Translations under genes and position numbers: made by a program
The notes under the pieces: model-generated
What the model was told of the DNA's origin: nothing
Seen by the model: the letters and a program-made list of their open reading frames with translations, nothing else
Database searches by the model: none
Part shown: positions 40,143 to 46,477 of the stretch, piece by piece
Layout: every line of letters starts with the position of its first letter
Numbering within the stretch: position 1 is the stretch's first letter
Assembly: GCA_031378125.1 (NCBI GenBank)
Contig: JANNDW010000285.1
Location: 3,437 to 67,436 of the forward strand
Reading direction: 5' to 3'
From: Methylibium sp.
Lineage (GTDB): Bacteria > Pseudomonadota > Gammaproteobacteria > Burkholderiales > Burkholderiaceae_C
Length of the DNA: 64,000 nucleotides

Positions 40143-41090
40143 TCACTGCTCCAGGAAGCGCTGCGCGTCCAGTGCCGCCATGCAGCCCGTGCCGGCACTG
40201 GTGACGGCCTGGCGATAGACATGGTCTTGCACGTCGCCGGCGGCAAAAACGCCCGGCACGCTGGTCATCGTGGCCATGCCGCTCAGGCCTGATTGGGTGA
40301 TGATGTAGCCGTCCTTCATCTCCAGTTGGCCCTTGAATATGTCGGTGTTGGGTTGGTGGCCGATCGCGATGAAACAGCCCTTCAGGGTGAGATCGGCGGT
40401 GCCGCCGCCCCGCGTGCTCTTGATGCGCACCCCGGTCACGCCGCTGGCGTCTCCCAGCACTTCATCCAGCGTGTGCCACAGGTGCAATTCCATCTTGCCG
40501 GCCGCCACCTTGTCCATCAGCTTGTCGACCAGAATGGCCTCGGCGCGGAACTTGTCGCGCCGATGCACGAGGTGCACTTTCGAGGCGATATTCGACAAGT
40601 ACAGCGCCTCTTCGACGGCCGTATTGCCACCGCCCACCACGCAGACATCCTGGTCGCGGTAGAAGAAGCCGTCGCAGGTGGCGCAGCCGCTCACACCGCG
40701 CCCCATGAAAGCTTCTTCCGACGGCAGGCCGATGTATTTGGCCGAAGCGCCGGTGGCGATGACCAGCGCGTCGCAGGTGTAGGTGCCGGAGTCGCCCTGC
40801 AACGTGAACGGGCGCTTGGAAAAGTCGACCTGGTTGATGTGATCGAACACGATTTGGGTGTTGAAGCGCTCGGCGTGTTTCTGGAACCGCTCCATCAACT
40901 CGGGGCCTTGCACACCGTCGACGTCGGCCGGCCAGTTGTCCACATCGGTCGTGGTCATCAACTGCCCGCCCTGGGCAATGCCGGTGATCAGCACCGGCTT
41001 GAGGTTGGCGCGGGCGGCATAGACCGCGGCGGAGTAGCCGGCCGGGCCGGAGCCCAGGATCAAGACCTTGGCGTGTTGAGATGCGGACAT
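40143..41090 (-). CDS. trxB: thioredoxin-disulfide reductase
   Basis: [15 protein letters not shown], redox [19 protein letters not shown], 315 aa. Confidence 0.96.
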
Positions 41091-41121
41091 GGAGTTGGGT
41101 CGGGTCGTGGTGGGTTGAAAA

Positions 41122-43059
41122 TCAGTTCAGACTGAGCTTGACGGCGCTGATGGATTCGATGCGGTCCAGGTGTTCACCGAACATCCTGGCGTTCTGGAAG
41201 CCGATCACCCGGGCCCGGCTCAGCTCAGGCCCGGCGGGCGCAAAGAACAACAGTGCCGGCGGCCCGAACAGCCCGTACTTGCGCATCAATGCCTTGTCGT
41301 CGGCACTGTTGGCCGTCACGTTGGCCCGCAGCAGGGTCATGCCGGCCAGCCGTTTGCGAACCGATTCGTCGGCAAAGGTCAGCGCTTCCATCTCCTTGCA
41401 GGCCACGCACCAGTCGGCATAAAAATCGAGCATCACGGGCTTGTTCGAGACCCGAACCGCGGCGTCGAGTGCCGCGAGGTTGGCCACCGTCTGGAACTTC
41501 AGCTCCGCCTGGTTCGACGCCGTCGGGCCCAGGGGTCCGCCGACACTCGCCGACAGATGTTGCAAGGGCTGCAGCAGATCGCGCCCGCCCGAGGCCATTC
41601 CCGCCAACTGAAGCGTCGCCAGCACGGCGAGCATCAAGCCCATCCCCTTGGTCACGGCGCGCCCCGGGGTGACCGATTCCGACAAGCGCTCAAACGCACC
41701 CAGGTAAACGGCGCAGGCCAACAGCAGCGCGGCAACACCCAACATCATCGCCCAGCTCGGAAGCACCGGCGACACCAGCCACAAGGCGACCGCCAACAGC
41801 ATCACGCCGAAGAAATGCTTGACCCGCTCCATCCACACGCCCGTACGAGGCAGCAAGGACCCCGCCGACAAGCCCACCAGCAGCAGCGGCACGCTCATGC
41901 CCGAGGCCAGCGCGAACAGCGCCACGCCACCGAGCAGCACATCCCGGGTCTGGCTGATGTACACCAGCGCACCGGCCAGCGGTGCGGCAACACAAGGGCC
42001 GACGATCAACGCCGACAGACCTCCCATCAGAAACACGCCCGCGTGCTGGCCCCCTTGCAAACGCCCCGACCACTGAGAAAGGCGCGTCTGGATGCGCGCC
42101 GGCATTTGCAGTTCGTAGACGCCGAACATGGCCAACGACAGCCCCGCCAGCAGCAGCGCAAACGTACCCAGCACCCAGGCGTTTTGCAGCGCCGCCGCCA
42201 GCCCCTCGCCGGCCAGGCCCGCGGCCATGCCGAACGCCGTGTAGACCAGCGCCATGCCAAGCGAATAGGCCAGCGCCAGGCCAAAGCCGCGGCTGCGCGA
42301 GACGGGACCCGATTGGCCGACGATGATGGACGACAGAATCGGGATCATCGGCAATACGCAGGGTGTGAACGCCAGCAGCAAACCCGCCAGCAGGAACACG
42401 CCGGCAACCGTCAACAGGCTGCGCGATTGCAGCGCCTGCGCGAATTGGGCTGGCTCACTGGCTGCGCCGGTCGACGCAGTGGCCCCAGTGACGGCGGTGG
42501 TGGCGGCGGTCGTGGAGGTCGTGGAGGTCGCTGCCGCCACCGCGGGCAGCCCTCCTTCCTCAGGTGTCCACGCCGCGGATTGCGCTTCGGTCAACAGGCT
42601 GAGCTTGGCCATGCCGCCCGCGCCCGTTTCGACCTTGAAGGCACGCTGCATCGGCGGGTAGCACAAGCCCTTGTCGGCGCAGCCCTGGTTGCCCACGATC
42701 AGCTTGAACGGCGCGCTGGACGCTTTGGCAAGCGGAGCGACCAACGTGGCCGAGTCCCGAAAGTACTCGACCTCCTTCTGAAACGTCTCGTCGAACTTTG
42801 TCTTGCCCTTGGGAACCCGCAGTTCACCCAGCTGAACCGTGCCGGGCATCGCCTCGACGCTGAACTTGTCACCGTAAAGATAGTAGCCGGGGGCGATGTC
42901 GAAGCGAATCTCGATGCGTTCGGCATCCACCGCGCGGGCCGACAGCTTGAATGCCACCTCGGGGTCGAGAAACTCGTCGGCGGCGCGCACGATGCCGCTC
43001 GCCGCCAACAGTGCGAGCATGCCCAGCGGGATCCACAAGCGTTTCAAATCAGATGTCAT
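41122..43059 (-). CDS. dsbD: thiol:disulfide interchange protein DsbD (transmembrane electron transporter)
   Basis: Signal peptide, N-terminal domain [13 protein letters not shown] cysteines FTPCVLP and GPCVAAP, C-terminal thioredoxin fold [12 protein letters not shown] Thr/Ala-rich linker joins the domains. Confidence 0.93.
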
Positions 43060-43074
43060 TGGGGTGAATTCTAT

Positions 43075-45459: not shown

Positions 45460-45478
45460 GAACATGTCCTTGAGGGAA

Positions 45479-45994
45479 TCATTTCGCCAGCGCCCCGAGC
45501 GCACTCGCGAACTTCGCTTCCAGCGCCTTGCGATCGTCATCCTTGAAGCCTTGATGCACGGCCAGCACGGTGCCGTCCGGGCCGATCAAGACCGATGTGG
45601 GCATGCCTTTCACGCCGAAGCGCTTCGCGGTGTCTCCTTTGGCATCGAAGCTAAGCGCGAACTTGGCGGGCAACTGGGCCAGAAATTGATCGGCGTCGGC
45701 GCGCTTGGCGTCCAGGTTGATGCCGACGATCTGCAAACCCTGGGCGCCGTACTTGCCCTGCATCTCGTTCATCCAGGGAAAGGACTGTCGACAAGGGCCA
45801 CACCAAGAAGCCCAGAAATCAACGTAGACCAGCTTGCCCTTCAGCGCGGACAGCGTTTGCGCTCCCGACCCGGCTGCCAGTTCGATGTCGGGTGCTGCCT
45901 GCCCGGCGTCGAGCGCGTGGGACATGAAGCTGGGTATCGACAAGGCCAAGGCCAGGCTGCCGGCCTTGATGGTTTGGAAGAACCGTTTGTGCAT
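45479..45994 (-). CDS. TlpA/ResA-like periplasmic thiol:disulfide oxidoreductase
   Basis: Signal peptide, then KGKLVYVDFWASWCGPCRQSFP (thioredoxin fold with CxxC), and GMPTSVLIGPDG. Confidence 0.88.
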   Translation of the reverse strand: MHKRFFQTIKAGSLALALSIPSFMSHALDAGQAAPDIELAAGSGAQTLSALKGKLVYVDFWASWCGPCRQSFPWMNEMQGKYGAQGLQIVGINLDAKRADADQFLAQLPAKFALSFDAKGDTAKRFGVKGMPTSVLIGPDGTVLAVHQGFKDDDRKALEAKFASALGALAK

Positions 45995-46120
45995 CGAAGA
46001 TTTCTCCGGATTGAATCGCCCGCCAGGGGCCTACAAGGCACGCAAGGCGCGCAGAGAACGGTATGCGGATTGCCTGTTCACTGCGGAAAGCAATTGTTGC
46101 CGGTGTGCCAAGCAGCGCCA

Positions 46121-46477
46121 TCAGGGGCAGATCGCCACCACGACGATCGTCACCGCGTGCACGTGCACATCTCCGACCGACGAAACGACGGTCACCGTGT
46201 TGCCCGCCTTCAGCTCCTGAAGTTGCGCCACGCTCAAGCTCACCGTGTGATCGTGGGTTGCCGAGCCTCTGATGCTGTAGGACTTTGCCACCATCGAGTC
46301 GAGGTCGGCGCGCAGGATGCTCAGTGCATGGCCGTGGTTGGCGGAGATCGCGCCGCCGTCGGCCCCACACACCGCCGCGGGTACCGCGGAACTGCCGCCA
46401 CCGCCGCAGGCCTTGAGGAGCAGCAGCACGGAGCCTGCTGACAAGATGTCAAAGAACGCTTTGCGTGTGATGTTCAT
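46121..46477 (-). CDS. small exported (lipo)protein with three HxH motifs, function unknown
   Basis: 118 aa. Hydrophobic N-terminus ending LLLKAC, then a GGGGSS linker. Motifs NHGHALS, THDHTVS, VHVHAVT. High GC3 supports coding. Confidence 0.6.
   Translation of the reverse strand: MNITRKAFFDILSAGSVLLLLKACGGGGSSAVPAAVCGADGGAISANHGHALSILRADLDSMVAKSYSIRGSATHDHTVSLSVAQLQELKAGNTVTVVSSVGDVHVHAVTIVVVAICP

Follow-up and report, generated by a model that had tools for sequence, protein, structure and literature searches.

The stretch of DNA analyzed here, hereafter the window, comprises 64,000 nucleotides of contig JANNDW010000285.1 from a Methylibium sp. assembly, and our subject is a block of seven co-directional genes on its minus strand, between positions 40143 and 46477. 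When we listed the open reading frames with internal ATG starts, we reproduced exactly the seven minus-strand genes and the six gap lengths (126, 19, 10, 29, 15, and 31 bp) given in an earlier reading of the same DNA (the original prediction). In order of transcription, the block encodes a 118-aa lipoprotein with HxH motifs (46121-46477), a 171-aa periplasmic TlpA/ResA-like thioredoxin (45479-45994), a 75-aa mini-lipoprotein of the DUF4266 family (45232-45459), a 395-aa DUF3570 protein predicted to form an outer-membrane barrel (44034-45221), a 309-aa ApbE-family enzyme (43075-44004) that transfers flavin mononucleotide (FMN) from flavin adenine dinucleotide (FAD) to protein, a full-length DsbD of 645 aa (41122-43059), and a 315-aa thioredoxin-disulfide reductase, TrxB (40143-41090). 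Pfam and NCBIfam searches assigned six of the seven proteins to families: Redoxin, AhpC-TSA, and Thioredoxin_8 for the TlpA-like protein, PF14086 for DUF4266, PF12094 for DUF3570, PF02424 for ApbE, DsbD_N, DsbD_TM, Thioredoxin_7, and NF001419 for DsbD, and TIGR01292 for TrxB. The exception was the HxH protein, which matched nothing; for every other gene the families agreed with those named earlier, and the motifs that had been pointed out (WCGPC, the DUF4266 tail GGGGCGCN, DSLSGAT, and a terminal Phe) are all present. G+C content at third codon positions was 0.70-0.87 across the seven genes, compared to an overall G+C content of 0.65 for the window. Close packing of genes in one direction is a common property of operons, and it is recurrence in other genomes that exceeds chance.

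The five central genes correspond to a cluster type that has already been described. Méheust et al. (2021, eLife 10:e66878; PMC8238504) grouped ApbE, DUF3570, a thioredoxin-like protein, DUF4266, and DsbD as "DsbD systems" and reported 316 further clusters without DsbD. In that survey, a Chlorobium luteolum DUF3570 protein was shown in Escherichia coli to be flavinylated by its ApbE at two [S/T]GA[S/T] motifs, the C-terminal CxC of DUF4266 was noted, and a hybrid thioredoxin/flavin system fed by DsbD was proposed. The function was called uncertain, with iron assimilation as a possibility, VIT1 ferrous-iron transporters being present in 25 DUF3570 clusters (PMC8238504). This is the 2021 survey to which the original prediction referred, and it reports what was attributed to it; the thiol/flavin envelope module put forward there is the published reading of the five-gene core, and the TlpA-like/DUF4266/DUF3570/ApbE/DsbD set is not a new discovery (PMC8238504). 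In the window, the genes for ApbE, DUF3570, the thioredoxin-like protein, and DUF4266 lie next to one another, 10-29 bp apart, DsbD (PF02683; DsbD_TM E value, 6e-93) follows 15 bp after ApbE, and the DUF4266 protein is secreted (lipobox LAGC) with a conserved C-terminal CxC. We conclude that the window locus belongs to the DsbD-linked DUF3570 flavinylation system already published, extended by one lineage-specific gene on each flank, trxB and the HxH gene. The published survey (PMC8238504) makes no mention of trxB, the HxH protein, an outer-membrane or barrel nature of DUF3570, the location of ApbE, or a JDVT-CTERM/cytochrome-c neighbor, and a full-text literature search returned no paper joining ApbE flavinylation with an outer-membrane barrel.

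To count neighbors, a DUF3570 alignment was run against one genome per species, which gave 584 relatives; the best 80 loci, nearly all from Burkholderiales, were kept (these and the further loci below are numbered with the prefix L) and searched by tblastn for each of the seven window proteins; loci with too little flanking sequence were left out of the counts. The DUF4266 gene was adjacent to DUF3570 in 79 of 80 loci, the TlpA-like gene was adjacent upstream in 74 of 77, and ApbE lay immediately downstream in 57 of 73. DsbD was found within 2 kb downstream of DUF3570 in half of the loci (30/60) and anywhere in the locus in 36/60. Several loci (L059, L061, L065, L082, and L088) have DsbD upstream of the TlpA gene instead, so the DsbD linkage survives rearrangement. 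TrxB was present in 5 of 56 loci, or in 5 of the 28 with a downstream DsbD, and the HxH gene was present in only 2 of 71. The core is highly stable and often linked to DsbD, and it is only rarely extended by trxB or the HxH gene. The synteny on which the original prediction depended is borne out in part: the core order recurs in 57-79 of 73-80 loci, while trxB (5/28) and the HxH gene (2/71) are seldom there. The complete seven-gene order was found again at three loci: L012, L092, and L093. Rhizobacter sp. Root1238 carries two complementary DUF3570 clusters, one (L018) with DUF4266-DUF3570-ApbE and neither TlpA nor DsbD, the other (L020) with HxH-TlpA-DUF4266-DUF3570-DsbD and no ApbE. The system is widespread: when 1.84 billion representative proteins were searched with DUF3570, 1,787 of them, all representing clusters at 50% identity, matched at E ≤ 1e-3. 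An exact look-up of the window DUF3570 protein found no record.

The TlpA-like protein has a signal peptide and the WCGPC motif at residues 64-68 (nt 45791-45805), and it matches Redoxin with an E value of 2.7e-21. Its scores fall under every NCBIfam equivalog cut-off (ResA, 93 against 170; DsbE, 70 against 123; TlpA, 70 against 230), and its sequence places it in the Redoxin/TlpA-like superfamily without making it an equivalog of ResA, DsbE (CcmG), or TlpA. The DUF4266 protein (PF14086; E value, 8.7e-23), whose gene ends 10 bp ahead of DUF3570, has the lipobox LAG-C20 with Ser at +2, from which sorting to the outer membrane is predicted. Its C-terminal tail, GGGGCGCN (nt 45235-45258), contains the CxC and was identical in 79 of 79 genome loci and in five of six metagenome loci. 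With its Cys-Gly-Cys on a stretch of poly-Gly, the tail looks like a mobile redox arm; SoxY, with its GGCGG arm, and Mia40, whose CPC feeds the flavoprotein Erv1, offer comparable cases.

The DUF3570 protein (PF12094; E value, 5.9e-61) has a signal peptide ending in AHA, a terminal Phe, and not a single cysteine. Modeled with AlphaFold2 from 81 homologues, it gave 16 long antiparallel strands, with a predicted local distance difference test score (pLDDT) of 84.5 and a predicted template-modeling score of 0.80. With this model, Foldseek gave 471 matches in the PDB below an E value of 1e-3. All of the 50 listed were outer-membrane barrels, including FadL, OmpG, PelB, and BcsC, and among these the 16-strand BcsC barrel had the highest TM-score (~0.5). 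Of 111 distant DUF3570 representatives, 84 end in F, W, or Y. With its signal peptide, even strand count, aromatic beta-signal, and fold match, DUF3570 is predicted to be a 16-strand outer-membrane beta-barrel, and the model and fold search bear out the barrel assignment of the original prediction at the level of structure prediction.

The first flavinylation motif of the window protein, DSLSGAT, occupies residues 96-102 (nt 44916-44936), with SGAT (residues 99-102) ending strand 3. A second site at the start of strand 4 is degenerate, reading SSAS (residues 110-113; nt 44883-44894) with the glycine lost, a point on which the original prediction was silent. The site-1 motif D-x-[LV]-SGA[TS]-PR was found in all 81 close homologues, and [ST]GA[ST] occurs at the same position in 106 of the 111 distant representatives. 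At site 2, 40 of the 81 close homologues read SSAS. Among the distant representatives, 43 of 111 have one motif (site 2 is missing in ~40%); the single-flavin form is therefore common. Flavinylation at Thr102 in the window protein is itself a sequence-based prediction, extrapolated from the Chlorobium homologue. In the model, the long connections all run from odd to even strands (3-4, 7-8, 9-10, 13-14, and 15-16, with 12, 12, 14, 36, and 15 residues, respectively), and the even-to-odd turns have 3-6 residues. Given this arrangement and the canonical topology with both termini in the periplasm, the loop between the two sites (residues 102-113) would be extracellular, and by strand parity SGAT and SSAS probably bracket loop L2 at the outer rim of the barrel. 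Since DUF3570 has no cysteine, the dithiol would need to reach the flavin from another protein. An outer-membrane barrel bearing flavin on a putatively extracellular loop is absent from the literature that we searched.

The ApbE protein (PF02424; E value, 1.5e-80; 271 bits) contains the SGDYE and HVLNPRTG (H-x-L-N-P-x-T-G) motifs and aligns to TM1553 (1e-45) and to the ApbE structures of Vibrio cholerae, E. coli, and Treponema pallidum. Against the enterobacterial equivalog NF007774, it scored 117 with a cut-off of 498, making it a member of the family and not that equivalog. We found neither a signal peptide nor a lipobox in the window protein, which does not have the features of an extracytosolic ApbE. 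Its domain begins at about residue 13-20, and extending the frame upstream adds no hydrophobic stretch. Residues 19-30 of the PDB ApbE chains correspond to residues 13-25 of the window protein, an alignment that leaves no space for a signal peptide. The same holds more widely: in ~60 related loci, the first possible start codon is separated from the ApbE domain by only a few residues, in many cases fewer than 10. From these sequences, we predict a cytoplasmic location for the ApbE clade of the cluster; its substrate, by contrast, carries a Sec signal and would be destined for the outer membrane. This feature of ApbE was not raised in the original prediction, and a signal-less cluster ApbE, as seen in essentially all loci examined, is likewise absent from the searched literature.

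As ApbE lacks a signal peptide, FMN would most simply be attached to the unfolded precursor in the cytoplasm before export. Flavinylation of an unfolded DUF3570 precursor ahead of export is the weakest topological link in what we propose below. There is evidence that SecYEG can accommodate bulky adducts on side chains. To our knowledge, cytoplasmic flavinylation followed by passage through Sec and the beta-barrel assembly machinery (BAM) is the maturation route of no flavoprotein described so far. The published experiment is compatible with this route: ApbE without a signal peptide acted in the cytoplasm, and the DUF3570 protein that it modified came largely from the insoluble pellet and was purified in denatured form (PMC8238504), which suggests, short of proof, that the native barrel fold is not needed for flavinylation.

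The window DsbD has the alpha, transmembrane, and gamma domains, scores 559 bits against NF001419 (cut-off, 330), and retains the cysteine pairs of all three domains (C127/C133, C234/C356, and C551/C554, the last within CVAC). TrxB scores 390.5 bits against TIGR01292, above the cut-off of 343.45 for this enzyme, and has CATC at residues 136-139 and HRRD at 176. Passage of electrons from TrxB to TrxA to DsbD is established chemistry for these families. The thioredoxin that this passage requires, TrxA (NF006898; 153.8 bits against a cut-off of 138), is encoded on the plus strand at 10746-11075, 29 kb outside the block and directly upstream of rho (11267-12595; 684 bits). The original prediction had the whole chain in one block; since the carrier between TrxB and DsbD is encoded 29 kb away, beside rho, the block does not hold the whole chain.

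The original prediction also took TrxB to be a dedicated cytoplasmic reductase, and here our counts point the other way. A trxB gene lies 18-41 bp after dsbD in seven other loci: a Methylibium metagenome-assembled genome (L012), a Rhizobacter metagenome-assembled genome (L021), Ideonella sp. YS5 (L050), two Roseateles loci (L074 and L087), and two metagenome contigs (L092 and L093). The trxB-bearing loci from genomes all come from Methylibium, Rhizobacter, Ideonella, or Roseateles. The gene downstream of trxB varies (gcvP in the window, other genes in L021 and L050), which mildly favors co-transcription with dsbD as a selected trait. No strong ribosome-binding site is visible ahead of trxB. 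TrxB proteins are 79-89% identical across genera, compared to 48-61% for the cluster proteins; this high identity, the equivalog score, and the 5/28 occurrence together argue for housekeeping behavior and against a dedicated reductase. Most likely, then, trxB encodes the general TrxB of the cell, co-transcribed with dsbD in this lineage. At L101 (11444-11647), only a 67-aa N-terminal remnant of trxB remains after dsbD, which hints either at two copies in that organism, one of them in decay, or at an artefact of assembly.

The HxH protein has a twin-arginine translocation (Tat)-like signal (ITRKAFF), a lipobox (LLKA-C24), a Gly/Ser linker, and then a domain of ~80 aa. Its motifs NHGH (residues 47-50), HDH (75-77), and HVH (105-107) are invariant and together supply six invariant histidines. 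Across the family alignment, a [ST]-R-[KR]-x-F signal is joined to the lipobox, followed by a Gly/Ser/Pro linker and a domain with eleven invariant residues. Cys37 and Cys117 are either both there or both missing, as expected for a disulfide. No Pfam or NCBIfam family and no PDB profile matched the protein, and Pfam scans of each member at E ≤ 1 were also empty, with the exception of one family member that gave a lone DUF7537 match. AlphaFold2 predicted a small alpha/beta core (pLDDT, 80-90), which had no Foldseek match in the PDB at E < 3. The possibility that the protein, which ends in ...VVVAICP, is a truncated JDVT-CTERM protein was rejected: it has no transmembrane segment or Arg tail, no NF033191 match, and no similarity to the JDVT neighbors described below.

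Searches recovered 35 HxH homologues among 5.8 billion proteins, and 56 metagenome loci were found by a scan with an alignment of 11 closer sequences. The HxH gene is directly upstream of the TlpA gene in the window and in L012, L020, L092, L093, L101, L106, L109, and L110, where HxH identity is 79% (L012), 43% (L020, Rhizobacter sp. Root1238), and 38-55% (the remaining six). The outer flanks of the HxH-TlpA pair are of at least three kinds, with paa genes in the window and L012 and other genes in L093, L101, and L020. At ~27 of the 33 HxH homologue loci with enough flank, the gene is not beside the cluster. A second recurrent operon containing it (L107, 3643-7670; also L117 and L125) consists of genes for a zf-HC2 anti-sigma-like protein, an S8 subtilase, the HxH protein, a 212-aa Oxidored_molyb protein, and an FNR-like FAD/NAD reductase, and is another envelope redox setting. 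In three Myxococcales-like contigs (L005, 1467-4927; L006; and L007), more distant homologues with ~46-51% domain identity follow genes for a GH2 glycosidase and a Uma2-family endonuclease, a context unrelated to redox genes. We regard the HxH protein as an optional accessory and, plausibly, as a metal-binding redox partner. The extra metal-site-like lipoprotein of the original prediction does have six invariant histidines, presumably a metal site; its tie to the cluster is looser than was supposed, since it is upstream of the cluster in only 2 of 71 genome loci and most homologues are elsewhere.

The best argument for functional membership of the HxH protein is that it occupies a slot held elsewhere by another secreted protein. 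Of 73 related loci, 30 encode, next to the TlpA gene on its upstream side, a JDVT-CTERM secreted protein of 650-1,300 aa (for example, L050, 7041-9056; L056, 7096-9261; and L029, 6016-9081; also L015, L019, L021, and L024-L028), and seven more loci have proteins with other C-terminal anchors in this slot. The JDVT-CTERM proteins carry an N-terminal CxxCH with weak cytochrome-c Pfam matches and five to eight choice-of-anchor-D/ASH Ig-like repeats, followed by the JDVT-CTERM signal (NF033191; 37-47 bits against a cut-off of 27) with its invariant sorting cysteine; in L029, L050, and L056, the Cys motif, the transmembrane segment with DP, and the Arg cluster are all present. No JDVT-like tail occurs anywhere in the 64-kb window, and the HxH protein has no JDVT-CTERM signal. 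Haft (2023, bioRxiv 10.1101/2023.06.07.544157) noted DUF4266, DUF3570, and TlpA genes beside full-length-homologous JDVT-CTERM proteins in a few species. The slot looks like an exchangeable position for an outward-facing partner. Separately, we observed that the GGGGC of the JDVT sorting signal (GGGGC[ST]...DP...TM...RRR) resembles the DUF4266 tail GGGGCGCN.

The 126-bp spacer between the HxH and TlpA-like genes (45995-46120, minus strand) was scanned for promoters and terminators and folded as RNA. Sigma-70 and terminator scans gave no signal above chance within it, and its RNA fold had a z-score of -0.82 with no U-tract. A candidate sigma-54 promoter in this gap (TGGCAC...TTGC) was rejected because its spacing is wrong. 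RNA folds of the trxB 3' region were unremarkable. The block is flanked by unrelated metabolism, with gcvT-gcvH-gcvP on the plus strand converging on trxB and paaG-paaI-paaK-paaA diverging from the HxH gene. Tandem glycine riboswitch aptamers (RF00504; 48.9 and 59.8 bits; 35256-35481) lie upstream of the gcv operon, and at 47959-48003 the short stretch between paaI and paaK contains 7.5 tandem copies of the hexanucleotide GCACCC (97% matches). Between the divergent HxH and paaG genes is a perfect 22-bp palindrome, TCATTGACCGATCGGTCAATGA (46621-46642), ~46 bp upstream of the paaG start, which occurs once in the window against 0.01 expected by chance. We considered it as an operator of the redox cluster and rejected this, as it is kept only in a Methylibium relative where paaG again adjoins; it is more likely the operator of a TetR-type regulator of the paa genes.

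Taken together, we propose that the cluster may work as a relay. Reduced nicotinamide adenine dinucleotide phosphate (NADPH) would reduce TrxB, which would pass electrons to TrxA, encoded elsewhere at 10.7 kb, and thence to DsbD in the inner membrane. From the behavior of these families and the conserved linkage, DsbD would then reduce the periplasmic TlpA-like thioredoxin, and this in turn the invariant C-terminal Cys-Gly-Cys of DUF4266 on its flexible GGGG tail. The DUF4266 dithiol might deliver two electrons to covalent FMN at Thr102 of the DUF3570 barrel, and the flavin could pass them to the outward-facing partner in the slot, the six-His Tat-type lipoprotein here and the JDVT-anchored CxxCH protein in many relatives. 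The FMN would have been attached by the signal-less ApbE to the cytoplasmic precursor, with Sec export and BAM insertion to follow. We infer each of the electron-transfer steps past DsbD, as well as metal binding by the HxH protein, and for the whole relay from NADPH through TrxB, TrxA, DsbD, the TlpA-like protein, the DUF4266 CGC, and the DUF3570 FMN to the slot partner we would give a probability of about 0.5.

Several points weigh against this relay. TrxA is encoded outside the block, 23 of the 28 DsbD-containing clusters lack trxB, the majority of HxH homologues are encoded away from the cluster, and in the window a gap of 126 bp separates the HxH gene from the remainder. The DUF3570 protein is cysteine-free, its second flavin site is SSAS, and strand parity is the sole ground for placing the flavin loop on the outside, where we suppose it to be. 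Finally, a signal-less ApbE with a Sec-exported substrate poses a topological problem, and we know of no precedent for flavinylation before export.

Many of the same observations bear on other explanations. The block might be composite, with only TlpA-DUF4266-DUF3570-ApbE-DsbD forming a functional unit, trxB being an ordinary housekeeping gene, the HxH gene being an unrelated lipoprotein gene with its own promoter, and both being neighbors by descent. The restriction of trxB to a single group of genera (5 of 28 DsbD clusters; 5 of 56 loci overall) fits this well, as do the equivalog score of TrxB, its 79-89% identity against 48-61% for the cluster proteins, and the lack of a visible strong ribosome-binding site before its gene; on the other side of the block, so do the 126-bp gap ahead of the TlpA gene, the presence of the HxH gene in 2 of 71 genome loci, and the ~27 of 33 HxH loci that lie elsewhere. 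However, the HxH-TlpA adjacency is kept despite HxH identities of 38-55% and changed outer flanks, the 18-41 bp dsbD-trxB spacing is kept while the downstream neighbor changes, and the filling of the TlpA-upstream slot by a secreted protein in many other genomes suggests a genuine partner position. On balance, we consider a composite block possible without being probable. The core itself could also be read differently if the thiol branch serves maintenance, maturing cysteines or keeping them reduced without feeding the flavin, and the flavin barrel acts independently. Maturation of cytochromes and copper proteins is the classical role of TlpA/ResA/CcmG-type proteins, and ResA, DsbE, and TlpA are the NCBIfam models to which the TlpA-like protein is most similar, although its scores are far under the cut-offs for all three. 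Candidate clients would be the DUF4266 CGC (for metal binding), the JDVT-CTERM sorting cysteine before lipid attachment, and the CxxCH before heme attachment; 30 of 73 loci have an adjacent protein bearing both CxxCH and the invariant sorting cysteine, the HxH protein has a co-varying cysteine pair, and a cysteine-free DUF3570 cannot accept electrons by thiol-disulfide exchange. In contrast, TlpA, DUF4266, and DUF3570 stay together in ~96-99% of loci with or without a cytochrome/JDVT partner, the window has no JDVT-like tail, and the absolute invariance of GGGGCGCN beside a flavoprotein suggests a dedicated redox arm. A thiol branch that serves maintenance in place of feeding the flavin seems to us somewhat doubtful.

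An account that is compatible with the relay gives it a purpose in reductive acquisition or detoxification of iron or copper, in which the outer-membrane flavin would reduce an external or a periplasmic form of the metal and the six-His lipoprotein would bind it or hand it on. The six invariant histidines and the Tat-like signal of the HxH protein, which is typical of cofactor-bearing exported proteins, are consistent with this, as is its position beside the Oxidored_molyb and FNR-like reductase pair in L107, L117, and L125. The presence of VIT1 in 25 DUF3570 clusters and the published suggestion of iron assimilation (PMC8238504) point in the same direction. However, there is no transporter, TonB receptor, or metal-responsive regulator in or beside the block, the flanks being gcv and paa genes, and neither fold nor sequence searches linked the HxH protein to any relative whose metal site is known. 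We regard a role in metal reduction as unlikely for this locus.

If the proposed relay is correct, its most far-reaching form would be a non-heme conduit across the outer membrane made of DUF3570, DUF4266, and the TlpA-like protein, in which the CGC tail enters the barrel and reduces FMN at the extracellular rim, the flavin then reduces a surface partner, and the FMN is attached in the cytoplasm before Sec and BAM. We offer this form as a speculation that is rather unlikely to hold in full. The points that go beyond the searched literature, namely, an outer-membrane barrel with a flavin at its outer rim, a cytoplasmic ApbE, and an exchangeable slot, are predictions that concern the whole family. 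Were the cluster indeed built of a flavin on the outer face of an outer-membrane barrel, a lipoprotein with a swinging CxC arm, a thiol supply from DsbD, and an exchangeable surface partner, many Gram-negative bacteria could move NADPH reducing power to the cell surface without multiheme cytochromes. The two alternative slot proteins are concrete candidates for the terminal step, and the signal-less ApbE raises the question of where flavinylation happens. For the window itself the gain is modest: one more member of a published cluster type, with two lineage-specific neighbors.

Compared to the DsbD cluster of Méheust et al. (PMC8238504), the window locus has the same five families in a tight cluster, the [ST]GA[ST] motif of DUF3570, and the CxC of DUF4266, and it differs in the extra trxB at its 3' end and six-His lipoprotein gene at its 5' end, in having one intact flavinylation motif and not two, and in that its ApbE is signal-less. 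Compared to the JDVT-CTERM proteins (NF033191), the HxH protein that occupies the same slot has an N-terminal lipobox and no C-terminal transmembrane segment or Arg tail. The pathways running from TrxB and TrxA through DsbD to CcmG, TlpA, ResA, or DsbC share with the window a three-domain DsbD with its six catalytic cysteines, a partner in the periplasm that has a thioredoxin fold and a CxxC motif, and a TrxB that depends on NADPH. Here, however, the thioredoxin is below the equivalog cut-offs, and its neighbors are a CxC lipoprotein and a predicted flavinylated barrel, with no genes for cytochrome maturation or copper proteins. The likeness to MtrCAB porin-cytochrome conduits is in possible working only, in that both would have an outer-membrane barrel, a periplasmic redox partner, and, in many relatives of the window locus, a surface cytochrome-type protein; there is no homology, as the predicted barrel has 16 strands and not 26, would bear covalent FMN in place of threaded multiheme, and would draw on a thiol source and not on quinol/CymA. 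In the relay from Mia40 (CPC) through Erv1/ALR (FAD) to cytochrome c, and in QSOX, a CxC or thioredoxin-like dithiol on a flexible arm feeds a flavin and then a heme protein, the same logic as in the proposed relay. The window proteins have no homology to these, and they would differ from them in placing covalent FMN on a cysteine-free barrel and in a presumed outward flow of electrons as opposed to disulfide generation.

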